DNA of 64,000 nucleotides from Rhodoferax sp. (GCF_034519335.1 NZ_JAXHOL010000003.1:27597-91596), one strand, 5' to 3'. Counted from the first letter of the stretch, positions 1,121 through 38,125 are shown. Notes: a model not told the origin generated them from the letters alone. Numbers and translations are program-made.

Positions 1121-2438
1121 ATGCGACCGCACCCCCATATTTATTCGGCCTTCCGCAACGAGCTATACGACGCACACCTGTGGCGCGGGCGCGCCCTGTT
1201 CATCGCCTTTGCCGCGCTGGCTGGGCTTTCCGTGGTGAGCTTCACCTGGCTCAGCGAGCACGCACTGGCCCTCTTCTTCACCCTGCAATCAAGCCACTGG
1301 TGGGCGCCCCTTGCTGTGGACGCCACTCACCGCTGCGGCCATCGTGTGGGTCACCCGACGCTATGCGCCGGGCGCAGCCGGGTCCGGCATACCGCAGGTG
1401 ATGGCGGCACAAGACCCCAGCGTGAACGAAAGCACACGTGGCCTGTTTGTCTCCCTGCGCTTGGCAGTGGCCAAGGTGGTGCTCACCGCCTGGGGCTTGC
1501 TGGGCGGCTTGTCGCTGGGGCGCGAAGGCCCGTCGGTGCAGATTGCAGCGGGCGTCATGCACAGCGTGCGCCGCTGGCTGCCCAAGCGCTCCCAGATCAG
1601 CGAACACAGCCTGCTGGTGGCGGGTGGTGCAGCCGGCATAGCTGCGGCCTTCAACACACCTCTGGGCGGCGTCATGTTTGCGATTGAGGAACTCACCCGC
1701 AAGCCCGAACACCGCAACCACGGCCTCACCATCGCCGCCATTGTGCTAGCCGGGCTGATGGGCATCTCGGCCTATGGCAACGGCAGCTACTTCGGCATCA
1801 TCCGCGTTGAAGGCTTTGGCTGGTCCACTCTGTTACCGGGCCTCCTTGTCTCATTGGCTTGTGGCTTGCTGGGTGGCTTGTTTGCGCGCCTGCTGGTGGT
1901 GTCTTTGGCCGGCCATTCGCTGGACTGGTTCAGCACACAGCGCAAGGCGCGGCCGGTGGCCTTCGCCGCAGCATGCGGCCTGGCCATTGCCGTCATTGGT
2001 GTGGTGACGGCGGGCGACACCTTTGGCAGTGGCTACGCACACACCAAGGCCTCGTTGGAGAACACTGGAGACACCAGCCCTTTTTATGTGCTGCTCAAGT
2101 TCGTCACCACCTGGCTCACCACCTGGGCGGGTGTGCCCGGTGGCATCTTTGCACCGTCGCTGGCCATTGGGGGGGCCGTGGGCGGCGATGTGGCGCAATG
2201 GACTGCCTACGCCAACCCGCCTACCCTGATCGCCCTGGGCATGGCGGCGTTTTTGGCAGCCGTGACCCAAGCCCCTCTCACGGCCTTCATCATCGTCATG
2301 GAAATGGTGGACGGCCACGCCCTGGTGCTGAGCCTGATGGCCAGTGCCCTGTTGGCCAGCGCCGTGTCGCGTCTTATCAGCGCGCCCTTGTATGCGTCGC
2401 TGGCCGAGCTGCAGCTCACCCGCCTGCCCAAAGCCTGA
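1121..2438 (+). CDS. ClC-family chloride channel / Cl-/H+ antiporter; apparent +1 frameshift near 1307-1311 (C-run)
   Basis: GSGIP, GREGP, GIFAP, AFNTPLGG motifs in ORF 1311-2438; N-terminal TM segment continues from ORF 1121-1310 in another frame (WWAP|LLWTPL). Confidence 0.85.
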
Positions 2439-2447
2439 GGTTTCGTT

Positions 2448-2993
2448 ATGGTCCGAAAAATCCTGGTCGTTGTGGACGACCGTCCCGTCACCCAATCCGC
2501 CATTGACCACGCCATTGAAATGGCACAAACCCACCGTGCCGACATTTTTTTCTTCGGGGTGCTGCCGCACTACGACTACCCGGCCGTCGACATGCTCCCG
2601 GTGGCCGATGTGTCCGCCGAAGGCTTGCAGGCCAAAGCGGCTGCGGAAGCCTCACGCTTGCTGGCTGCCGCAAGCGCGTGGGCAGAGCGCTGCGGGGTGC
2701 ACAGCCACCGCGCGACCGCCATGGCAGGTGATGCCGCCCACGCGGTGGCCGACGCTGCCATCAAACGGCACTGCGACCTGATCGTGGTGGGCACCGAAGA
2801 CCACAACGCCGTGGTGCGCCTGCTCAATGGCAGCATTGTTCCGGGGCTCATCTCCAAGGCGACCGTGCCGGTGCTGGTCTGCCGGGACCGCCCCTTGCGT
2901 GCCAAACGCAACAGCCACCTGCGCCGCCCCTTCGACAAAAAAATAGCGGTCCGAGAATTGGGCACCCGTGATGACGACGAACCGAATGACTAG
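2448..2993 (+). CDS. Universal stress protein (UspA family)
   Basis: RKILVVVD..., CDLIVVGT, LLNGSIVPGLISKATVPVLV signature. Confidence 0.85.
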   Translation: MVRKILVVVDDRPVTQSAIDHAIEMAQTHRADIFFFGVLPHYDYPAVDMLPVADVSAEGLQAKAAAEASRLLAAASAWAERCGVHSHRATAMAGDAAHAVADAAIKRHCDLIVVGTEDHNAVVRLLNGSIVPGLISKATVPVLVCRDRPLRAKRNSHLRRPFDKKIAVRELGTRDDDEPND

Positions 2994-3573
2994 AGCCACG
3001 CCCCCACGCACCACAAGCGCCCTCGCCCCGCTGCGCCGCCGCCTGCTCCAGGTTATCGGTGTAGGCAGCTTGTTGCTGGCCCCAGGCTGGGCCGCGGCCC
3101 AAGCTCCCAGCTGCAGCGACCTGTGTGCCCTCTATGGCAGCTTGGTATTGGCACCCGAGCGAGACTTGATTGGCAGCATCCGCACACTGGAAAAAGTAGC
3201 CAAACCCGCCGTGGGCCCGCGCAACACCCGCGGCCGCTGGATACAACGCAGCGCCTACCTGGGCACCGAAGCGTTTGACAGCACCTTCTACCTCAAAGGC
3301 GGGCTGGTGCAGCGCATTGAACTGCTGAGTACCGCCCCCGAAGCCCAATGCCGCGCCCGCACCCCATGGGCGGCCACACTGTCCACCTTGCAGGCCTGGC
3401 AGGGACAAGCCGCCGTGAGCGGTGAATTCAACACGAGCGAAGGCGCACAGCAATCGGCCCATGTGGTGGTGGGCGATCTGAATGTGTCCGTCTACCTGTC
3501 CGTGACACCCACCAGCTGCGCAACCACCGTGGCTTTTCAAAAGCGCGATGTGAAAGACGCCTCTGAGTTGTAG
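2986..3573 (+). CDS. Hypothetical exported protein, putative Tat signal
   Basis: RRRLLQ followed by hydrophobic stretch and AAA-QA cleavage site; start overlaps the usp stop. Confidence 0.6.
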   Translation: MTRATPPRTTSALAPLRRRLLQVIGVGSLLLAPGWAAAQAPSCSDLCALYGSLVLAPERDLIGSIRTLEKVAKPAVGPRNTRGRWIQRSAYLGTEAFDSTFYLKGGLVQRIELLSTAPEAQCRARTPWAATLSTLQAWQGQAAVSGEFNTSEGAQQSAHVVVGDLNVSVYLSVTPTSCATTVAFQKRDVKDASEL

Positions 3574-13303: not shown

Positions 13304-13700
13304 GGCAAAGGGAGGCTGGGGGCGTGGGGCGGGGGGGTGGGTAGGGGGGGGAGGAGGGGGGGGGTGGGGGGGGGGGTGGGGGGAGAGTAGGGAGGGTAGA
13401 GAGGGGGGGGGGAAAAAAAGGGGAGAGAGCAGCGGGGAGTGAGGGGGTAAAGGGGGGGGAGAGTAGAAGGGGGGGGAAAGAGGGGGGGGGGAGGAGGGGA
13501 GGAGGGGAGAAAGGGGGGGGGGGGGGGGATGGGGAGAAATGGGGGGGGGGAGGGAAACAAAAAGAGAGGAGGGGCAGCGGGGGGGGGGGAAGAAAGAGGA
13601 GGGGAGGGAGAGGGAGGGGGGGGGGTGGAAGGGGGGGAGCTGGGGGGGGGAAGGCCGGGATGGGGGAGGTGGGGGAAGAAAAAAATGAAGTTAAGGGGAG
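13304..13700 (+). other. G/A-rich low-complexity tract, probable sequencing artefact
   Basis: About 400 nt almost devoid of C/T, irregular G runs with no period; starts right after a stop codon; adjacent genes are frameshifted. Confidence 0.7.
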
Positions 13701-13765
13701 CAGAGGGTACCGCACCAAGCGCCTGCGAGCCTCAGGCCTCCAGCGTGGGTATGCAAAGCCAAAAT

Positions 13766-18699: not shown

Positions 18700-18762
18700 G
18701 CTACGTTATTGATAGCTGTTCGCGCAATATCCACGAGGGCTAGAGGCCAATTTGGCACTTAA
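18700..18762 (+). repeat. REP-like repeat, copy 5
   Basis: GCTACGTTATTGATAGCTGTTCGCGCAATATCCACGAGGGCTAGAGGCCAATTTGGCACTTAAA between convergent genes. Confidence 0.78.
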
Positions 18763-20342
18763 ACGCCCTGCCCCTGCCGATGCTGGGCGGCCTGCTGCTG
18801 GATGGCGTCGCGCGCTGGCGCATCAAGCCGGGCCAGGTTTTTAAGCTGCATGGCCATGCGGGCGTTGGGCTTGAGCAGGGCTTCGTGGCGGATCAAAAAG
18901 TCCCAATACAGCGTGGTGAACGGGCAGGCTTGCGGGCCGGTGGATTGGGCCGGATCAAAGCGGCAGCCTTGGCAGTGGTTGCTCATGCGCTGGATGTACT
19001 TGCCGCTGGCCACATAGGGCTTGCTGGCCATCAGCCCACCGTCGCCAAACTGGCCCATGCCCAGCGTGTTGGGCAACTCCACCCACTCCACCGCGTCCAC
19101 ATACACGCCCAGGTACCACTGGTGCACCGCCTGCGGGCGCACGCCCAGCAGCAGTGCGTACAGGCCGGTCACCATCAGGCGCTGGATGTGGTGGGCGTAG
19201 CCGTGTTCCAGGGTCTGGCCAATGGCGTCTTCGAGGCAAGCCATGTCGGTCTCGCCCGTCCAGTACCAGGCGGGCAAGTCGGCCTGCGCGTCCAGCGCAT
19301 TGCGTTCCAGGTAGCTGGGCATTTGCGTCCAGTAGATGCCGCGCACGTATTCGCGCCAGCCCAATATTTGGCGGATGAAACCCTCGGCCGCTGCCAGCGG
19401 CGCGTGGCCTGCGCGGTGGGCGTCTTCGGCGGCTTGCACCACTTCGCGCGGGTTCAGCAGCTTGAGGTTGAGCGCGCAACTCAGGTGCGAGTGGTAGAGC
19501 CAGGCCTCGCCTGCCCACATGGCATCTTCATATTTGCCAAACAGTGGCAGACGCTGGGTGATAAAGGCCTGCAGGGCCTGCAGCGCCTGCACGCGCGTGA
19601 CCGGCCAGCCAAAGCTGTGCAGCGTGCCGGGGTGGCTGGCAAAGCGGGTGTTGACCAGCGTGATGACGTCTTGCGTGATGGCGTCGGGCGCAAAACGCGT
19701 GGGTGGCGGCACATTCTGCGGGCCTGCCTTGCCAAAAGATTCGCGGTTGTCGGCGTCAAAGTTCCATTGCCCGCCCACGGGGGCCTTGCCCTCCATCAGG
19801 ATGCCGTGCTTTTGCCGCAGCGCGCGGTACCAATATTCCAGGCGCAGCTGCTTGCGGCCCTGGGCGTGGGCGGCGAACTCGCGCACGGTGCTGAAGAAGT
19901 GCGTGTCATCGCGCAGGTCCAGAGGCAACTGCTGTTGGGTAGCTACAGCGCGCAGGCTGTGCAGCACGCGCCAGTCGCCCGGGGCGGTGAGCACCAGGCC
20001 AGCAGGCTGCAGCGTGGCAATGGCCTGCTGCAGCGCCCCAGCCAAGGTGCCGGGGTTGTTGGCATCGTCCAGCGCGGTGTAGTGCAGCGGCAAGCCGCGC
20101 GCTCGCAGGTCGTGCGCAAAGTGCCGCATGGCGCTCAAAAACACGGCGGTGCGCTGCTTGGCAGACCACACGTGGGTGGACTCCTCGGCCACCTCGGCCA
20201 TCCACACCACGTCTTGCGTGGCATCAAACCCGTCGAATGCGGACGACTCTGCATCGAGCTGGTCGCCCAGCACGATGACGAGGTTGCGCACTTTGGTGGG
20301 CATGGGGGCAAGTGCGGGCATGGGCGTGGTGGAGTTGTTCAT
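18759..20342 (-). CDS. FeS-cluster bacterial cryptochrome/(6-4) photolyase (PhrB/CryB class)
   Basis: LVIVLGDQL, YHSHLS, GYAHHIQRLMV, WVELPN, KPYVASGKYIQRMSNHCQGC..ACPF; four FeS cysteines (MACL, HCQGC, ACPF). Confidence 0.88.
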   Translation of the reverse strand: MNNSTTPMPALAPMPTKVRNLVIVLGDQLDAESSAFDGFDATQDVVWMAEVAEESTHVWSAKQRTAVFLSAMRHFAHDLRARGLPLHYTALDDANNPGTLAGALQQAIATLQPAGLVLTAPGDWRVLHSLRAVATQQQLPLDLRDDTHFFSTVREFAAHAQGRKQLRLEYWYRALRQKHGILMEGKAPVGGQWNFDADNRESFGKAGPQNVPPPTRFAPDAITQDVITLVNTRFASHPGTLHSFGWPVTRVQALQALQAFITQRLPLFGKYEDAMWAGEAWLYHSHLSCALNLKLLNPREVVQAAEDAHRAGHAPLAAAEGFIRQILGWREYVRGIYWTQMPSYLERNALDAQADLPAWYWTGETDMACLEDAIGQTLEHGYAHHIQRLMVTGLYALLLGVRPQAVHQWYLGVYVDAVEWVELPNTLGMGQFGDGGLMASKPYVASGKYIQRMSNHCQGCRFDPAQSTGPQACPFTTLYWDFLIRHEALLKPNARMAMQLKNLARLDAPARDAIQQQAAQHRQGQGV

Positions 20343-20512
20343 TTTTTGGCCCGGCAGGCGTCGGAGCAGTAGCGCACGGCATCCCAGTTTTTGGCCCAGG
20401 CCTTGCGCCAGGTCATGGTGCGGCCGCACACGGCGCAGGGTTTGCTGGGCAACGATTGTTTGTTGCCCTTGAAGTCGTTTTTGGTGGGGTGTGGCATGGG
20501 TGTCTTGCGGGT

Positions 20513-22070
20513 TCAGCCAAACAGGTCGCCCTGGGGCGATGGCGTGTCAACGGCTTTGGCACGGGACTTGGCAGCCGCCTTGCGACGCTGGCCAGAGGGC
20601 GGCAGGCCGCTTTTGCGCGAGCCATGGCGCGCTTGCACATCGCCCGCCTCTGCCCTCGCCGCCTGCGTTTGGCGCAGGCCGTACATGCGGTCTTTGGCGG
20701 CCTTCATGGCCAGCTTGTCATCGACGATAGGCGCCGGGTAATCGGTGCCAATGTGGCAGCCCGCCATGCGCTGAACGCTGGCGTCCATGTTCCAGGGCTG
20801 GGCCAGATACGGCAGCGGCACGCGGGCCAGCTCGGGCACCCAGCGGCGAATGAACAGGCCCTCGGGGTCTTGGTCTTGCGCCTGTTTGGTGGGCGAGTAC
20901 ATGCGCAGCGTGTTGATGCCGGTGGTGCCGCTTTGCATCTGCATCTGGCTCCAGTGGATGCCGGGCTCGAAGTCGAGAAACTGCCGGGCCAAAAACAGGC
21001 CCGGCTCGCGCCAGTGCAGCCACAGGTGGTAGCTGGCAAAGCTCACCAGCATGGCGCGCATGCGAAAGTTCAGCCAGCCGGTGGCCCGCAGGGAGCGCAT
21101 GCAGGCGTCCACCATGGGGTAGCCGGTGCGGCCTTCGCACCAGGCGGCAAAGTGCGCGTGGTTGAAATCGTCCTCGCGCAGGCCATCGCACACGCGGGCA
21201 AAGTTCTGGAACTCAATGTCCGGGCTCGTCTTCCAGCTTTTGCATGAAATGGCAGTGCCAGCGCAGGCGCCCGGCAAAGCCACGCAGCGCGTGCGCGAGT
21301 GTGCGGTCGGGGGTGTTGGCAATGGTGACTTCGGTAGCTTGGTGCACCGTGCGCAAGGACACGGTGCCAAAGGCCAGGTGCGGGCTCAGGCGGCTGCAGC
21401 CGTCTTGCGCGCTGAGCGGGCTGGAGAGTGCCTTGCGGTAGTCGTAGCCGCGCTCGGCCAGAAAGGTTTGCAGGGTGCGCCGCGCAGCCTTTTCACCAGC
21501 GCGCTGCAGCTGCCGGCCGTGGGGGGAGAAGCCCAGTTCTGCCAGGCTGGGCAGCGCGGGTTGGTCCAGCGGTGCCGCGGCCACAAACCCGCCCTCCAGC
21601 AGCTGCAAGGGCGCATCCATACGCGCCTGCCAGCGCCCTGCCCAGCCGCTGCGGCTGCGCAGGCGGCGCACCACGCCGGTCTGGGTAAATTCTTGCCACA
21701 CCACTTGCTGCGCTTGGCACCACTGGCCCACCTGCACATCGCGCACATAGCTCCAGCCCGGGCCGGTTTCCTCGTGGCTGAGCAGCTGGCCAAAGCCCAG
21801 CTCGGCGTGCAGCTGCGCCAGCACCGGCACGGCCGAGCCCACGCGCACCAGCAGCGGCATGCCGCGCGCCGCCAGCGCCTCGCGCAACTCCTGCAGGCTG
21901 CGCAGCACAAAGTCCACATGCTGCGCATCGCACTCGGGGCTGTGCAGCCACTCGGGCTCGATGATGAAGAGGCCCGCAGCGTCCGCACTGCGCTGCGCTG
22001 CCACCAGCGGCGCGTGGTCGTGCACGCGCAGGTCGCGCTTGAACCAGACCAGGGTGCGCAGGGCCGGCAT
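20513..22070 (-). CDS. Cryptochrome/DNA photolyase family protein; apparent +1 frameshift near 21222
   Basis: WFKRDLRVHDH, CSRLSPHLAFG, LRWHCHF in ORF 21213-22070; GRTGYPMVDACMR, WLNFRMRAM, FLDFEPGIHWSQ in ORF 20513-21370; joined by removing one base from GAGCCCGGAC. Confidence 0.85.
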
Positions 22071-22088
22071 GCAATCCGTCCGGGTGGT

Positions 22089-22698
22089 CTAGCGCCGGGG
22101 CTCCGCGGCCTGGGAGAGCAAGGCGGCGCGCAGCTCGGGGCGTTTGGTTTTGGGGTCGAGCCAGATTTTGAAGAAGGCCTCGCTAAACGCCGGTATCGGC
22201 GGTCTCACCCAGCAGCTTGCCATTGAAGAAGAAGCGCGCGCCCTCGCCCGGCAGGTGCACGCCCACCAGTTGGTCGCCCGACTTCACATCCACAAACAGC
22301 GCTTCCATCCATTTGGACCAAGCCACGATCTGCTCGGGCGACGAGGTGCTGATGCGCTGCAGCTCAATCAGCGAGGTGTTGGCAATGTCACGGCCCTTGA
22401 TGGCGGTGGCGTAGCGAATATCCAGCGCAAACGGGCGCGCAAAGCTGAACGCCGCATCGGCGCCCGGCAGCCAGAGCGTGGCGTCATACGCGTTGAAGCC
22501 AAAGAACCGCAAGACGCCACTGCCTTTGGCCTGCCAGTTGGAGCCGTAGGGCGCCAGCTCGGCGGGGGCGGCCGCCGTGGCGGGCGCTGGGGCGGTGGGC
22601 GCGGCAGTTTGGGCCAAGGCAGCCTGGCCACACAGCAGCGCAAGCGTCGCGCACCAAGATAGCAGCAAGCGGGAGGGAGATAGACGCGAGAGATGCAT
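22089..22698 (-). CDS. Chalcone isomerase-like exported protein; apparent +1 frameshift near 22191
   Basis: GSGVLRFFGFNAYDATLW, FALDIRY, VKSGDQLVG; corrected C-terminus FSEAFFKIWLDPKTKRPELRAALL. Confidence 0.75.
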
Positions 22699-22783
22699 GG
22701 CGGGGGTGGGCTGGGCCCGGTGTGAAAACCAAAAAGCCCAGGAGTGCAAAGCAGTCCTGGGCGGCGGGCAAAACGTCTGGCGT

Positions 22784-23239
22784 TTACTTGGGCATCACGA
22801 CGCTGTCGATCACGTGGATCACGCCGTTGTCGGCCACGATGTCGGTCTTGACCACCTTGGCGTTGTCCACCATCACACCACCGGTGGTGGAGACGGTCAG
22901 CTCAGAACCCTGCACGGTCTTGACCTTACCGGCACGCACGTCAGCGGCCATCACTTTGCCGGGGACCACGTGGTAGGTCAGGATGGCGGTCAGCTTGGCT
23001 TTGTCTTTGAGCAAGGCGTCGAGGTCAGCCTTGGGGATCTTGGCAAAGGCTTCATCAGTCGGCGCAAACACGGTGAATGGGCCCTTGCCCTTGAGGGTGT
23101 CCACCAGGCCAGCAGCGCCCAGGGCTGCGGCCAATGTCTTGAAGCTGCCAGCACCCACAGCGGTATCCACAATGTCTTTGGCCTGTGCAGAGAAGGCTAC
23201 GCCCAGGGACAGAACAGATGCAATCAGAAACTTTTTCAT
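22784..23239 (-). CDS. Fasciclin (FAS1) domain secreted protein
   Basis: Signal peptide; [38 protein letters not shown]. Confidence 0.92.
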
Positions 23240-23329
23240 CGATATCTCCATGATGGTTAGATCAATCAACCTCGCCAAAAATGTGGCGCAAGCGGAATAT
23301 ACAAACCGAAAAGTATCCATATGAACTAT

Positions 23330-25480
23330 ACGGTATTTATTTGTTTTGGGGCCTCACCATTTGCGACACTACACCCAAAGATGGGGGTAAAAGCTTTGCG
23401 ACACTAGACCCCGGCTGCTGCTTTGGATTTGTTGCGCCTGTGGATATACGGTGTGCTGTTGGCCTACTGCCTTGGCAAAAAGGGCTGCGTGAGGCTTGGT
23501 GAGGGTGCATTGGGCTGGAGGATGGGCTTGTACGGGGAGTTTGGGGGGGGTGGCTTTGCGCTGGGGCGATTTGCTTCGCCCTGGATCTGCAGCACCTTTA
23601 CCACCACGGCGCCCTGGATTGCACTGGCAAGTGCCGGCGTGGAGCGTTACAGCCTGCGCGTGTTGCTCACCTACCGATTTGTCAAAGGTTCTTTCTCTTT
23701 GGTCGGCTTGGGTGCCGGTGCCTCGCTACTCTCGTGGCGGAAGTTTTTGCTAATTGACGGCGAGGCGCTGTGTGGATGGAAGATCGTGGTTGGTGGAGCT
23801 TTGGAATGCTGGGTGCAGCGCTTGACCCCAAGTGGGCCGCCTATGTTGGCCTAACGTTGCTGGCTATTTCTATTGCCTCGCTGGCGATATTTGGGAAAGC
23901 GTTGAAAAAGCGCTGTTGCCGAAAAATACGGGACGCCGCCAAGCGGGGGGAGCGGTTGCGCGGCAATACTTAGTGACCCACACGTCGTAAATGATTTGCA
24001 GCATTGGACGTTTTGGCTGCGCACGGTGCGTGGACGCGCGCCTGAACCAACTCGCCAAACGTGGCCACCAAAATCTTGCCTTGGTCAGCGAATATTGAAA
24101 CGCGTTGGTGCGGCTTTCGCAAGCTGTTACTTCAACCTGACTTCTTGCCAAAAGTTGCCAGATCTTTGCCATCTGCACTGAAGTCACTGGCGTAGTACTT
24201 CATTAGCTCACCCACGCTTCCTGAGCTTTGGCCGCGCCATGCAAGACTTTCCGTTGAGGTTCCGCTGCCCGTTTGCCGCCAATTGAGCTGCAATAGGAGG
24301 GGTAGTCGAATTTCCAAGTGCGAATAATGCGATCCAAGTAGGATTGGCCCGCAGCTCGTGCTGGGTTTGGTGTGGTGGGGTTCCTGTCGTGCCGCGTTGC
24401 GGTCGAATTGGGGTGCTCGGGCGTGCCGTCATGGTCGGGCTTGGGGTCAGGGTGGTAATGATACCCCCCGGCGTGCGCTTCCCATTTGCCGTTCCGGAGA
24501 TGTAGTGTGCCCGTCGGGTTTTGCTCCCGTGTTCTCAAAAAGATAAGGAGCTGGCGGTGTCGGCGATGGATGTTTGTTTCTTCTGGAAAGGCCAAAAATG
24601 GGTGGTCAGTAATGGAGGACGCTTGTGCCGCGTGCGCATGCGCCGCGGTTAAGTTGTTTTGCGGCCCGCTCCAGTTGTGGGGACTCGCCGCCGTCGAATG
24701 GAGCGAAAGGCGGAAAAGGTTGTGGCTGAAAATTTGGGTCGCGGCGTTTGTTTGCGCGCTTGCGGGTGTCGTGCCCTAGGGTATTTCTGGCGTGTTGGCG
24801 TGTTGGTTGGTTATTGGGTTTGGAGTGATTGGAAATGCGGTGAATGGTGAGGCAGAATGTGCTTGAAAGAAGTAGGGTGGGTTCTTCGTTGTTTGCTTCT
24901 GTGTCCTTCGCTTGTTTTGGGTCTTTGATTTCTCGTCGCGGCCTCCTTCTTGCTCTTGCCCTCTTCCGCCCAGCGCTGTGTTGCTAGGACCAATTGGCGG
25001 GTGGCCATTCACAAAAAAGGTTGGTGTCTTCGTCACTTCCAACGCTGTCAAGTCCTGAACATCTTGGGACAACACGCTTAATTCGCCCGCTTGCTGCAGG
25101 GCTTTGGATATTTACCCCGCCTGGCTTGGTCGCCATTCAGTTGGGCTTTGCGTGGTCCGCCCCTCGGTTGGGCCGCCAGGTCTTTCCAGCCGGGGTTTTG
25201 TCCTGTTTTGGCTGCTTCGGCGCTTTCCCTTGGTCAGCCTTGATGGGGCGCATACCGTCAGGGATTCGTTGGGGTGTTTCGCATAAGTTTGACAGTGGAT
25301 AAAAGGCTGTGTCTCGCACGCAGGATCAAAAAGGATGGGGGGCGCATTGACGGGCCCCCGGGTTGGGACGACCTTGTTGGCGCTTGTGCCTTTCCATTTG
25401 AGAATTTTGGACACGCTGTTGGTACACGTACATACCAAGCGCAAAGGCTGGATAGAAAGGGATGTTGTTTTTGGATTTCA
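23330..25480. other. Garbled low-quality sequence; contains remnants of at least two genes on - and one membrane-protein gene on +
   Basis: No clean ORF; recognisable motifs hop frames every few dozen codons. Confidence 0.7.
23970..24890 (-). pseudogene. Remnant of L,D-transpeptidase (Cds6-like C-terminal domain)
   Basis: Fragments LAWR...LMKYYASDFSADGKDLA and DQGKILVATFGELVQ match my recollection of the C-terminal domain of betaproteobacterial L,D-transpeptidases; boundaries approximate. Confidence 0.45.
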
Positions 25481-25481
25481 T
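24900..25481 (-). pseudogene. DsbA-family thioredoxin, frame-broken (likely sequence error)
   Basis: MKSKN..FALGMYVYQQRVQ; FDPACET; QDVQDLTALEVTKTPTFFVNG; ATG overlaps dsbB stop (ATGA). Confidence 0.7.
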
Positions 25482-25894
25482 TTGGGGACTTTTTTGAGAT
25501 AAGTAATGATCAAAACGGTGATGAGAAAAAAAGCGGCCAAGGACAGCCACGGGATCTGCAAACCGTTGAGGATTTCCAGCTTTTGATTCGCGCACGAGAC
25601 ACCTGTTCCACAGGGGGTCCATGTTTTCGGAATCCAAGAAGCGACAAGCAGCGTGTGGTAGCCAGAAATCAATGTCCCTGACACCGCCAAAGGCAAGGCA
25701 TAGACGGCACCTCGACGGTCATGGCTATAACTGGCTATACCCAGAATGAGCGCCAAAGGAAACATCGCTATGCGCTGGTACCAGCACAAGGTGCAGGGCG
25801 TCATCAACATCACTTCGCCAATGAATAGGGCGCCTGCTGTAGACAACAAGGCGAGCAACCAGGCAGTCAGAAGTAGTAGCCAGGTGGACTTCAT
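25478..25894 (-). CDS. dsbB: Disulfide bond formation protein B (DsbB/BdbC)
   Basis: PCTLCWYQRIAMFPL, second Cys pair PC...SC; ATG overlaps lspA stop. Confidence 0.88.
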   Translation of the reverse strand: MKSTWLLLLTAWLLALLSTAGALFIGEVMLMTPCTLCWYQRIAMFPLALILGIASYSHDRRGAVYALPLAVSGTLISGYHTLLVASWIPKTWTPCGTGVSCANQKLEILNGLQIPWLSLAAFFLITVLIITYLKKVPK

Positions 25895-26409
25895 AAGCCT
25901 CCCTTGCGGAGGCCGGCAGATTGGCGTTTTGAAATGGAAAAGGAGAGCCCAACCCAGACAAGCATGGCGCAAACCACGAACACATCCGCCAAATTGAACG
26001 CTGGCCAGTGAAGCGCCTTCCAGTGCAAATCAAGAAAATCTATGACCGCGCCGGTCTGGACCCGATCAATCAAGTTGCCACTGCCTCCGGCAACAACACC
26101 CGCGCCGATCCAGCGCTCCGCGGGATCGATTTTGCGAAGCAGGCACAGTACTGTTATAGGCAGTACCACCAGGACACTGATAGAAATAAAAAACCAACGT
26201 TGCCAACCACCCGCATCGGCAAGTATGGAAAACGCCGCTCCTGTATTCAGGACGTGTACGAAGTTAAACCAAGAAGTAACTTCAATCAAACCTCCCAATG
26301 GAATGATGGAAGCGAAAAAAACTTTGGTGATTTGATCCAGCGAGACCAAAGCCAACACCACAACGATCCAGACCCAACGCGGATATACGCGCCAAAACGC
26401 TTGCGCCAC
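25891..26409 (-). CDS. lspA: Lipoprotein signal peptidase II
   Basis: LDQITK, NTGAAFS, GNLIDR, VIDFLD, WPAFNLAD; GTG at 26409 is 6 nt after GGAGGAG. Confidence 0.92.
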   Translation of the reverse strand: MAQAFWRVYPRWVWIVVVLALVSLDQITKVFFASIIPLGGLIEVTSWFNFVHVLNTGAAFSILADAGGWQRWFFISISVLVVLPITVLCLLRKIDPAERWIGAGVVAGGSGNLIDRVQTGAVIDFLDLHWKALHWPAFNLADVFVVCAMLVWVGLSFSISKRQSAGLRKGGL

Positions 26410-26439
26410 AAACAACTCCTCCAACAGGCTCAGTCAAAA

Positions 26440-26546
26440 CCGGCAGATTTGCCGGAACAAGAATCCAGGAGAAGAATGGTTACGGTGGACAGACCGGCAA
26501 TGCACCGGTCAATCCCTTAACTGAAACGCCCCTGGTTAAACCAGGG
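26440..26546 (-). promoter_or_regulatory. Three hairpins between czcI stop and lspA RBS
   Basis: CCCTGGT-3nt-ACCAGGG (26530-26546, stop codon at the loop), GACCGG-7nt-CCGGTC (26492-26510), CCGGCA-4nt-TGCCGG (26440-26455). Confidence 0.55.
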
Positions 26547-26889
26547 AAACCCATTGCGGGCGTTCGGGTAAGTCTTGGTAGTGAGCCAGATACATAGCGG
26601 CATTGGCATGTATCCGCACAGGCCCTGTAGTCAGCCGTAGCGTTTTCGACGAACTTTGAAATGCTACGGAACAGTTCGCGTGGCAAACGCCGCATTCGTT
26701 TTCAACAGAGACGCCATCTACCCCAGCAGAGCCATCGTTGTCCGTGGTCACAGTCGCGTGCTTGTGTGCATGGTGACCTATGTGTTGGACTGAAGGCATG
26801 CTTTCATGCTGGCAATAGGTACTCACAGCAGCCCAGGTTAACTGCAATGGCAAGAGCACCAAGAGAAAGACGAGAAGCCAGCGTCGCAT
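26536..26889 (-). CDS. czcI: CzcI-like protein
   Basis: Signal peptide MRRWLLVFLLVLLPLQLTWA, YCQHE..HIGHHAHKH, CGVCH, C-terminal PERPQW; same layout as Cupriavidus CzcI. Confidence 0.8.
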   Translation of the reverse strand: MRRWLLVFLLVLLPLQLTWAAVSTYCQHESMPSVQHIGHHAHKHATVTTDNDGSAGVDGVSVENECGVCHANCSVAFQSSSKTLRLTTGPVRIHANAAMYLAHYQDLPERPQWVSLV

Positions 26890-26906
26890 GCTATGAAGTT
26901 TAGCAG

Positions 26907-27695
26907 CTACAACCTTGCACCCAGGTACTGGCCGGCCTTTCCGGGCTGGAGCATATGGCGCTTTGCGGGGCGCACGCGCCCAGTGCGGATGTTGTCCACA
27001 TTGCGGTTCATCCAATGGCGAATAAAGCGGGTGTAGAGCCACTGCTTGAGGCCCGACAGGTTGACTCCATGCAGCTGATAAAAAGCATCTGGCGTGTCAA
27101 AAACGCCAAAGTCTTGGTTGATTCCCTCTTTCTGGATGAAGGTGTCCTGCCCGGCCCAATCGACCCCAGGCGCCTGCAGGTTGGGAGTAGCCACGCCAAA
27201 GCCGCAGAAGCTACCTTGTACATCTGCAAATCCGGTCTGCAATGCGTTGAGGTAGGGCATATCGAGAATGAAGCCTTCCAGCCGCAACCAGCGGTCTTCC
27301 AACAGAACCTCCACCCAGCTGTGCAGGATGGACGGTGGTGCCAGCTGGTAGGCCAGCCCAGTGATGGCGCCGCGCTGCAACACCTTGTCGATAGTGAAGC
27401 CATGAAAGCGACAAGGAATGTCCAACGCCCGAAGCAAGGCCATGAGCAGCGTGCCCTTGGTGTTGCACTGGCCCAAGCCATCGGCCAGTACCTGTGAAGC
27501 GGGCAGATCGTCACTGTCGTTGTAACCAAAGACCAGTTCGTCACGCACAAAGTCATAGGCCGCGCCAATGCGTGCATAGGGCTCCAGCGCACGCCAGCCG
27601 CGTGCCTGGACCAGGCGCTGAATCTCGGGATGGTGGATGTCCAGAATCGGGCTGGCGCTGGTCCATTGGGGTGCGGTAGCGCTGAAATATGTCAT
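26907..27695 (-). CDS. Transglutaminase-like family protein
   Basis: GLGQCNTKGTLLMALLRAL (Cys), LHSWVEV (His), WLRLEGFILD. Confidence 0.85.
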   Translation of the reverse strand: MTYFSATAPQWTSASPILDIHHPEIQRLVQARGWRALEPYARIGAAYDFVRDELVFGYNDSDDLPASQVLADGLGQCNTKGTLLMALLRALDIPCRFHGFTIDKVLQRGAITGLAYQLAPPSILHSWVEVLLEDRWLRLEGFILDMPYLNALQTGFADVQGSFCGFGVATPNLQAPGVDWAGQDTFIQKEGINQDFGVFDTPDAFYQLHGVNLSGLKQWLYTRFIRHWMNRNVDNIRTGRVRPAKRHMLQPGKAGQYLGARL

Positions 27696-27728
27696 AGGTA
27701 TTGGTTATTGAAATATGGCAAAACCACT

Positions 27729-27759
27729 ATTAAAAAGCCTGTACCAACTACAGAGTCAA
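27729..27759 (-). promoter_or_regulatory. CadR/PbrR-type promoter-operator driving the transglutaminase gene
   Basis: On - strand TTGACT (27759-27754), 19 bp spacer with dyad CTGTA-N5-TACAG, TTTAAT (27734-27729). Confidence 0.85.
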
Positions 27760-27809
27760 GCCGTACAATTCGCTATCTGCGCTCATAGGGCGCACCCGGG
27801 AGAATGTGC

Positions 27810-28289
27810 ATGAAAATTGGTGAACTGGCCAAGGCCACTGGCACCCAGGTGGAGACGGTGCGCTACTACGAGCGCGAGGGCCTGCTGCCCACGCCCCTGC
27901 GCACCGAAGGCAACTACCGCATCTACGGCGCCAACCACATGGAGCGCCTGTCCTTCATCCGCCACTGCCGCTCGCTGGACATGACGCTGGACGAAATCCG
28001 CACCCTGCTGGGTTTCAAAGATGCACCAAAAGACAACTGTGAACAAGTCAACGCACTGCTGGACGAGCACATTGGCCACGTGGCCCAGCGCATCAAGGAT
28101 CTGCGGGCGCTGGAGCGGCAACTCAAAGCCCTGCGCGAGCAGTGCCTGGTAACGCAGGAAGCCGCGCACTGCGGCATCTTGAATGAGCTGTCAGTCGCAG
28201 CCCGCACCCAAGCGGTACCGAGGGCAGCACATGGCCATGTGCATGGCGCGCACACCCGCGGCGCGCAAGCCAAGGTCAAGAAGCAATAG
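27810..28289 (+). CDS. cadR: Cd(II)/Pb(II)-responsive MerR-family regulator
   Basis: MKIGELAKATGTQVETVRYYEREGLLP, RHCRSLDMTLDEIR, three Cys (NCEQ, QCL, HCGIL), His-rich tail HGHVHGAH. Confidence 0.88.
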   Translation: MKIGELAKATGTQVETVRYYEREGLLPTPLRTEGNYRIYGANHMERLSFIRHCRSLDMTLDEIRTLLGFKDAPKDNCEQVNALLDEHIGHVAQRIKDLRALERQLKALREQCLVTQEAAHCGILNELSVAARTQAVPRAAHGHVHGAHTRGAQAKVKKQ

Positions 28290-28707
28290 CGTTCAACACC
28301 TGCGAAGGAATGCGCCGTGGCTTGAGGGTGTCGGCCTGCACGCAACCGATGCGAATGCGACCCTGGGCCAGCAGCGTGTCGCCACGCCAGGCCTCTTGCA
28401 CCAGCACCATGCTGGCAGCGCCGAGCTCGGCGACCTGCACGCTCACCGTAATCAGATCGTCCAGCTTGGCCGGCGCTAGGTAGCGCAATTGCACATCGGC
28501 CACCACGAACATGGCGCCGGTTTCGTCGCGAAGGGCCTGTTGGCCTACGCCCGCAGCGCGTAGCCATTCGGTGCGGGCACGCTCAAAAAACTTCAGGTAG
28601 TTGGCATAAAACACCACGCCACCGGCATCAGTGTCTTCCCAGTAAATGCGAATGGGAAAGGGATTGGGGATTGCGGGCACGGTGGCCACGCTGTCGACTG
28701 CGCTCAC
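28276..28707 (-). CDS. ybgC: YbgC-type acyl-CoA thioesterase
   Basis: RIYWEDTDAGGVVFYANYLKFFERARTEWLR. Confidence 0.85.
   Translation of the reverse strand: MSAVDSVATVPAIPNPFPIRIYWEDTDAGGVVFYANYLKFFERARTEWLRAAGVGQQALRDETGAMFVVADVQLRYLAPAKLDDLITVSVQVAELGAASMVLVQEAWRGDTLLAQGRIRIGCVQADTLKPRRIPSQVLNAIAS

Positions 28708-36992: not shown

Positions 36993-38125
<1,133 letters not shown>

Follow-up and report, generated by a model that had tools for sequence, protein, structure and literature searches.

We analysed a stretch of 64,000 nucleotides from Rhodoferax sp. (GCF_034519335.1 NZ_JAXHOL010000003.1:27597-91596; hereafter the window), in which cadR, the gene of a metal-responsive regulator, lies divergent to a gene for a transglutaminase-fold protein (TGase) that is followed on the same strand by czcI, lspA, dsbB, a dsbA-like gene and an L,D-transpeptidase gene (ldt). 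An earlier note on this DNA had read the array as a CadR-gated operon for envelope maturation without a metal transporter. The features of the locus, in window coordinates, are the following.

27810-28289, plus strand: cadR, Cd(II)/Pb(II)-responsive MerR-family regulator, 159 amino acids (TIGR02047, Pfam, cysteines)
27729-27759, minus strand: CadR-type operator-promoter facing the TGase gene (single pattern match in the window)
26907-27695, minus strand: TGase-like gene, 262 amino acids, first behind the promoter (Pfam Transglut_core)
26536-26889, minus strand: czcI homologue, 117 amino acids, orphan (NF045614)
26425-26535, minus strand: czcI-lspA spacer, 111 bp, with two conserved hairpins (terminator-like scan)
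25891-26409, minus strand: lspA paralogue, signal peptidase II, 172 amino acids, GTG start (TIGR00077, Peptidase_A8)
25478-25894, minus strand: gene for a short DsbB/BdbC-type disulfide oxidoreductase, 138 amino acids (Pfam DsbB)
24944-25481, minus strand: gene for a DsbA-like thioredoxin, corrupted, 538 of 657 bp remaining (mapped from contig L084)
23970-24878, minus strand: L,D-transpeptidase gene (YkuD plus NTF2-like Cds6_C), corrupted, 909 of 1242 bp remaining (mapped from L084)
23412-23951, plus strand: gene for a DedA-family (VTT domain) membrane protein, convergent with the block, corrupted (mapped from L084)
23346-25470, no strand: corrupted stretch, about 589 letters missing (alignment to L084; contigs of runs X1 and X2)
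23344-26917, no strand: indel block holding czcI, lspA, dsbB, the dsbA-like gene, ldt and dedA (comparison with locus L087, composition)

The product of cadR scores 181.5 bits against the NCBIfam model TIGR02047 (CadR-PbrR), which has an equivalog cut-off of 151.45, and it carries the Pfam domains MerR_1, the N-terminal helix-turn-helix, and MerR-DNA-bind. Its translation has Cys77, Cys112 and Cys121 and a His-rich tail, the corresponding cysteines of PbrR being C79, C114 and C123 (PMC3431237). An exact-sequence look-up of cadR gave no match. The operator-promoter, read on the minus strand from 27759 to 27729 (TTGACTCTGTAGTTGGTACAGGCTTTTTAAT), consists of a -35 element TTGACT, a 19-bp spacer (CTGTAGTTGGTACAGGCTT) containing the dyad CTGTA-N5-TACAG, and a -10 element TTTAAT, a layout that matches the footprinted PpbrA promoter (PMC3431237). 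It is the sole match to the operator pattern in the window, where 0.01 matches are expected by chance, and the element is kept upstream of TGase or cadA in related loci. The MerR-type promoter that had been described as pointing away from cadR and into the TGase gene is therefore real and of the CadR/PbrR type. With the model score, the three cysteines and the divergent dyad promoter all present, the regulator is, as judged from its sequence, a member of the CadR/PbrR group.

The first gene behind this promoter matches Pfam Transglut_core (PF01841) with an E-value of 8e-13 and a score of 49 against a cut-off of 23. Because its product has no signal peptide, it is expected to be cytoplasmic and not, as had been proposed, a periplasmic enzyme of cysteine chemistry or of the envelope. 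Residues C77, H125, E140 and D145 are invariant among 30 homologues, as are H98 and C164, and C95 is nearly so; we predict a protein with a Cys-His-Asp/Glu triad and a papain-like fold. The AlphaFold (AF2) model has a predicted local distance difference test score of 80.8, and its best PDB matches in Foldseek were 3isr and TglA with a probability of 1.0. A comparison at the level of sequence with proteins of solved structure returned nothing significant, the best PDB match having an E-value of 0.5. Homologues at E<=1e-20 number 6057; to our knowledge none of the close relatives has been characterised, and no relevant paper came up in literature searches that paired transglutaminase with cadR, cadA, czc or cadmium.

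Screening 185,579 species genomes for the TGase yielded 257 loci, and the best 80 of these, together with five contigs obtained through protein look-ups, made up the 85 loci that we compared. Across them the TGase gene is a regular passenger of Cd/Zn/Co islands. In each of the 81 loci with a classifiable upstream region it is either the first or the second gene after a CadR-type operator; in about 20 loci the arrangement is cadR divergent from cadA-TGase, and in 41 loci the operator lies directly before the TGase gene, among them loci without an adjacent cadR, for example L004, L008, L014, L031 and L085. A position-weight matrix built from the operators and run over the related loci found 88 sites, placed before TGase (38), cadA (32), a cation diffusion facilitator (CDF) gene (17) or elsewhere (1). 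Control of TGase by CadR and membership of TGase in the CadR-type regulon are well supported by this sequence comparison. A TGase at the head of a CadR unit had been regarded as an oddity, and in the related loci it turned out to be the rule. The statement that czcI normally precedes czcCBA held up: czcI follows TGase in about 45 of the 85 loci, and czcCBA then follows in about 40.

The genes behind TGase have another history. In the related locus L087, the TGase of which is 86% identical, the counterparts of window positions 20519-23343 (92% identity) and 26918-28247 (85%) are only 44 bp apart, and the gene order is cadR divergent from TGase-fasciclin-chalcone-isomerase-like, matching the flanks in the window. 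Because these flanks are joined at 44 bp in L087, the region 23344-26917 is an indel, with a true length of about 4.2 kb. Its G+C content is 50-57% versus 62-70% in the flanks; neither recombinase genes nor terminal repeats were seen at its ends. Two further loci, L005 and L088, have only the divergent cadR-TGase pair at the syntenic site, beside the same AHSA1, thioesterase and acyl-CoA dehydrogenase genes. By comparison of these sites, the locus is a composite in which a conserved chromosomal cadR-TGase pair has been joined to an inserted accessory block. Sliding identity of TGase against L087, L004, L085, L005 and L088 gave no clear signal of a recombination breakpoint within the gene. The left flank holds a fasciclin-domain gene (22784-23320), a chalcone-isomerase-like gene (22183-22749) and, within 18759-22070, two photolyase/cryptochrome-like open reading frames of 556 and 285 amino acids, this flank being the part that is 92% identical to L087.

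The same block was found in a second genus. In Candidatus Aalborgicola (L004) the order is TGase-czcI-lspA-dsbB-trx-(SCO)-ldt, at 78% DNA identity, and the ratio of nonsynonymous to synonymous substitution rates (Ka/Ks) between the window lineage and L004 is 0.04-0.19 for all six shared genes. From these ratios, the block is maintained by selection. L004 has no cadR beside TGase; a divergent cadA-cadR pair lies about 0.6 kb past its L,D-transpeptidase gene, which argues that efflux genes are normally found with the block and not supplanted by it. The idea that the envelope genes stand in place of efflux is weakened accordingly. The absence of a pump from the unit was confirmed, since tblastn with P1B-ATPase, CzcA/B/C and CDF sequences found no homologue anywhere in the window.

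Past dsbB, every reading frame of the block is broken in the window. L084 is a public short-read contig that encodes exactly the TGase of the window and is 100% identical to it over 25500-27887. Against L084, the stretch 23346-25470 lacks 589 letters in 339 short runs with almost no substitutions, and perfectly identical patches alternate with patches in which between a quarter and almost half of the sequence is gone. The lost letters show a strong strand bias (on the plus strand C 278, A 232, T 72 and G 7). Contigs of the runs X1 and X2 both hold letters absent from the window; X2, from an independent study, provides a 40-kb contig that is about 3% diverged, is collinear over 22663-28497 and has the same extra letters. 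None of the runs compared supports the shortened version. Because there are hundreds of strand-biased deletions without substitutions and between identical flanks, the stretch is not a product of mutation. The broken dsbA-like, ldt and dedA genes of the window are an assembly error, and all genes are intact. The advice to resequence 23.3-25.5 kb was therefore justified.

Pseudogene decay of dsbA and ldt, which tblastn and DNA alignment to L004 had suggested, is ruled out by L084, which shows missing letters only. A mutation bias behind the G+T excess in the composition profile at 23.4-25.4 kb is likewise ruled out, the excess arising because C and A letters were lost. The window is corrupted a second time at 13308-13707, where approximately 400 bp are filled with meaningless G/A-rich sequence, including long poly-G tracts. 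A run X1 contig agrees fully with the window as far as 13307, then has 1283 letters of real sequence where the window has these 400, and matches again from 13708. An approximately 75-bp poly-G run with scattered A in AT-rich surroundings, at about 37721-37796, is probably an artefact of the same kind. Such patches resemble pseudogenes, and claims of gene decay for this genome need checking.

The czcI product passes NF045614 marginally (102.9, cut-off 100), is 34% identical to CzcI of pMOL30 over 99% of its length and has an N-terminal signal peptide with the hydrophobic N-terminus MRRWLLVFLLVLLPLQLTWA. The known role of CzcI is to quench or damp CzcCBA activity (PMC10127602); in the window czcI is followed by lspA and not by czcCBA, and it thus lacks the family's usual placement. 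LspA scores 101.9 against TIGR00077 (cut-off 73.95), also matches Pfam Peptidase_A8 and has the two catalytic Asp motifs, GNLIDR and FNLAD; the gene is called identically in L084. DsbB reaches 52.1 against Pfam PF02600 (cut-off 22.1) and shows the cysteine pairs CTLC and C-X5-C. Its subtype is uncertain because no NCBIfam equivalog cut-off was reached, the nearest model, PRK03113, being below its cut-off.

The far-end genes were read from L084. The DsbA-like thioredoxin there (2407-3063) has 218 amino acids, matches Thioredoxin_4 (E 8e-22) and DSBA (E 5e-9) and carries a CETC motif, of which the second CXXC cysteine is lost in the window copy through the assembly error. The L,D-transpeptidase (L084:3156-4397) has 413 amino acids, a YkuD domain (PF03734, E 8e-18) with the catalytic His and Cys in LHG...EGCVA and a C-terminal NTF2-like domain; ldt is 78% identical to its L004 homologue, with a Ka/Ks of 0.09. 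The dedA product (L084:4423-5163) matches Pfam VTT_dom and, weakly, a DedA NCBIfam model. Gene identities and order in the TGase-czcI-lspA-dsbB-dsbA-ldt array thus stand through dsbB as the earlier note gave them, as does the ATGA coupling: the lspA stop overlaps the dsbB start and the dsbB stop the start of the dsbA-like gene. The description of the L,D-transpeptidase as a remnant does not stand, both far-end genes being intact in L084.

All genes from TGase to ldt lie on one strand, and no second consensus promoter was found among them. The czcI-lspA spacer has two GC-rich hairpins, GACCGG...CCGGTC and CCGGCA-AATC-TGCCGG, and the hairpin with the TTTT tract folds with a free energy of -10 kcal/mol. 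The spacer (26425-26535) is about 80% conserved between the two genera (L004, 11149-11272), the U tract being poorer in L004, and its hairpin may be a weak terminator or a processing site. The spacer as a whole is a candidate processing site, attenuator or protein-binding site. Two RNA runs of 'organism A' yielded no reads, and two metatranscriptomes gave six short contigs only. The run label of the approximately 97%-identical 40-kb contig (X2, X3, X6, X11-X32) also has poly-A RNA-seq libraries. Because of these, 'organism A' is probably a eukaryotic host, with this bacterium present in its samples.

Taken with the comparisons above, we consider it reasonably probable that the locus is a chromosomal CadR divergon whose conserved direct target is the cytoplasmic TGase-fold protein, with an acquired accessory block of about 4.2 kb, of the kind found in Cd/Zn islands, placed behind it. 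Cd(II), Pb(II) or Zn(II) would bind the Cys77/Cys112/Cys121 site of CadR, and the metal-loaded regulator would, going by the known mechanism of its family, realign the over-long promoter with its 19-bp spacer. Transcription of TGase-czcI would thereby be switched on, the step with strong comparative support, and some transcripts may pass the two weak hairpins into lspA-dsbB-dsbA-ldt. The outcome would be more lipoprotein processing, more periplasmic disulfide formation and more 3-3 cross-linking during exposure to a thiol-reactive metal, and efflux, if the organism has any, would be encoded outside the window. Cadmium tolerance in P. putida, E. coli and B. cepacia depends on dsbA (PMC12041740 and references therein), and both the pbr operon and Tn6018 include lspA-like genes (PMC3431237, PMC6863613). 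A part for additional or alternative Dsb, LspA and L,D-transpeptidase activity during stress by thiol-reactive metal would be compatible with this literature and with the Dsb genes that stand in a CadR-type operon on a Sphaerotilus plasmid (L002, see below).

Several observations weigh against this reading. In the metatranscriptome contigs, which come from some freshwater samples, transcription is seen for TGase and across the lspA/dsbB junction only. The ribosome-binding sites of TGase and czcI are weak, and the GTG start of lspA has a strong one of its own, GGAGGAG. Between czcI and lspA there is a conserved hairpin (26455-26440, CCGGCA-AATC-TGCCGG) with TTTT after it, and because of this hairpin and the separate ribosome-binding site, lspA-dsbB-dsbA-ldt may be a separate unit. 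None of the 88 operator sites in the related loci lies directly before lspA, dsbB, the thioredoxin gene, czcI or czcC, and metal induction of the envelope genes would therefore depend on read-through. The TGase fold, finally, has generic bacterial transglutaminase-like cysteine proteases (3isr, TglA, TgpA) as its only matches.

That the genes from TGase to ldt form one dedicated CadR-gated operon, which repairs or replaces thiol-dependent envelope functions instead of exporting metal, seems to us rather unlikely. Such an operon would fit the single strand behind a sole recognisable promoter, the ATGA coupling of lspA-dsbB-dsbA, the pump-free 64 kb, the order kept in L004 with its genes under purifying selection, and the established Cd sensitivity of dsbA mutants (PMC12041740). 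It does not fit the composite make-up of the array from a conserved cadR-TGase pair and an indel block, or L004, where the block lies about 0.6 kb from the divergent cadA-cadR pair and TGase has no cadR beside it. The hairpin and the ribosome-binding site ahead of lspA, the cytoplasmic location predicted for TGase and the envelope genes' never having an operator of their own in related loci speak against it too.

A wider proposal concerns TGase itself, and we put it forward as speculative and unlikely as a whole: that TGase is the real conserved effector of the CadR-type regulons of Burkholderiales and of related Rhodobacterales plasmids, providing a new cytoplasmic function in metal tolerance, here without a pump and with an envelope back-up kit co-induced. 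If this were true, TGase would be an enzyme or a metal-binding protein acting on Cd- or Zn-damaged thiols or on gamma-glutamyl compounds. The usual picture of a MerR-type Cd/Pb/Zn regulon is a sensor and a pump; in some genomes TGase is the sole linked target. The family, apparently unstudied, is a specific candidate for a part of Cd/Zn tolerance that has been missing so far and does not involve efflux. The envelope block for its part lends comparative support to the importance of DsbA/DsbB in Cd tolerance, its regulation by metal being a separate matter.

It is also conceivable, and in our estimate quite improbable, that the locus descends by deletion from a larger cad/czc island, having lost czcCBA and cadA from between czcI and lspA, and that the rest is uncoordinated, hitch-hiking cargo. 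The order TGase-czcI-czcCBA in about 40 of the 85 loci would give such an ancestor, CzcI as a quencher of CzcCBA (PMC10127602) looks left over when orphaned, and the modules are variously shuffled: TGase-lspA in L017, TGase-dsbB-trx-czcI-czcCBA in L044 and cadA-...-lspA-...-dsbB-trx in L003. However, a different genus has this czcI-lspA junction, spacer included, at about 80% identity, so any deletion would be old and retained; Ka/Ks is 0.04-0.19 for all genes, czcI included, and the reading frames of L084 are all intact. A one-off deletion or misassembly at the czcI-lspA junction, which the earlier note had named as an outcome that would undo its reading, was not what we found, the junction recurring at 78% DNA identity in L004. 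A chimeric join as the source of the gene order, for which the local corruption of the source assembly at 23346-25470, 13308-13707 and near 37721-37796 might be cited, can be virtually dismissed, because L084 is 100% identical over 25500-27887 and spans cadR to dedA in the same order, the 40-kb X2 contig from another study is collinear over 22663-28497, and the internal junctions are common to L004.

Set beside known systems, the divergon with its acquired block belongs, as a variant, with the MerR-type metal divergons already known, and the chief lead it offers is the large TGase family tied to CadR-type operators. The CadR-PcadA divergon of P. putida and P. aeruginosa has the same regulator family, divergent layout, TTGACT -35 element and 19-bp dyad spacer; it drives the P1B-ATPase CadA, whereas the window has the TGase-fold gene first and no ATPase in 64 kb. 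The pbrRTU/pbrABCD system of C. metallidurans pMOL30 (PMC3431237) likewise has a PbrR/CadR-type promoter (TTGACT-19 bp-TTAAAT) on a polycistron, which also includes envelope functions, namely the signal-peptidase-II-like part of PbrC and the C55-PP (undecaprenyl pyrophosphate) phosphatase PbrB; in contrast to the window, its first gene is that of the PbrA ATPase, and genes for TGase, CzcI, DsbB/DsbA and L,D-transpeptidase are all absent from it. The czcICBA operon of C. metallidurans (PMC10127602) shares the family of small periplasmic CzcI proteins (34% identity), whereas the window has no czcCBA and, we infer, a MerR-type promoter in place of the czcI promoters.

Closer to the window are the Burkholderiales islands, such as that on pACP3.2 of Acidovorax carolinensis, in which cadR is divergent from cadA or a short CDF gene followed by TGase-czcI-czcCBA. 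They have a TGase of the same family (64-79% identical), the same operator consensus and czcI after TGase, but they carry one to three efflux systems, whereas the window has none and has lspA-dsbB-dsbA-ldt in place of czcCBA. Candidatus Aalborgicola lynettensis (L004) has the TGase-czcI-lspA-dsbB-trx-...-ldt order of the window and a CadR-type operator before TGase, and differs in its extra SCO gene, the lack of cadR by TGase and the cadA-cadR pair about 0.6 kb past ldt. The Dsb-like Scs copper-tolerance systems are metal determinants with thiol-oxidoreductase genes, in families and a layout unlike those of the window. In the literature on Acinetobacter, Tn6018 (cadA-cadR-lspA; PMC6863613) is a case of metal resistance travelling with a lipoprotein-processing gene, again with different families and layout.

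Further arrangements were seen among the related loci. In L012 (9328-9960) and 16 similar loci, a 210-amino-acid CDF protein consisting of the membrane domain only (Pfam Cation_efflux) is encoded between the operator and TGase, with cadR-ynfA divergent from this short CDF gene. On two Rhodobacterales plasmids (L089 and L090, Alphaproteobacteria) the order is helix-turn-helix gene-CDF-TGase-CDF; TGase is flanked by the two CDF genes, and IS21 elements and a divergently transcribed SCO-dsbB-thioredoxin-PCuAC-SCO cluster lie next to it. Another conserved product, about 155 amino acids long and without a Pfam match, which starts MI... and includes ...RLL.FVA.PL..FTPI..., is encoded between TGase and czcI in L085 (3794-4255) and adjoining cadA in L004 (14836-15303). 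On a plasmid of Sphaerotilus sulfidivorans (L002, 4200-9316), one strand carries, behind a CadR-type promoter, DUF3703, an unannotated czcI-like open reading frame, dsbB, a thioredoxin gene, a second cadR, cadA and ynfA, so that Dsb genes and a pump lie in an apparent single CadR unit.

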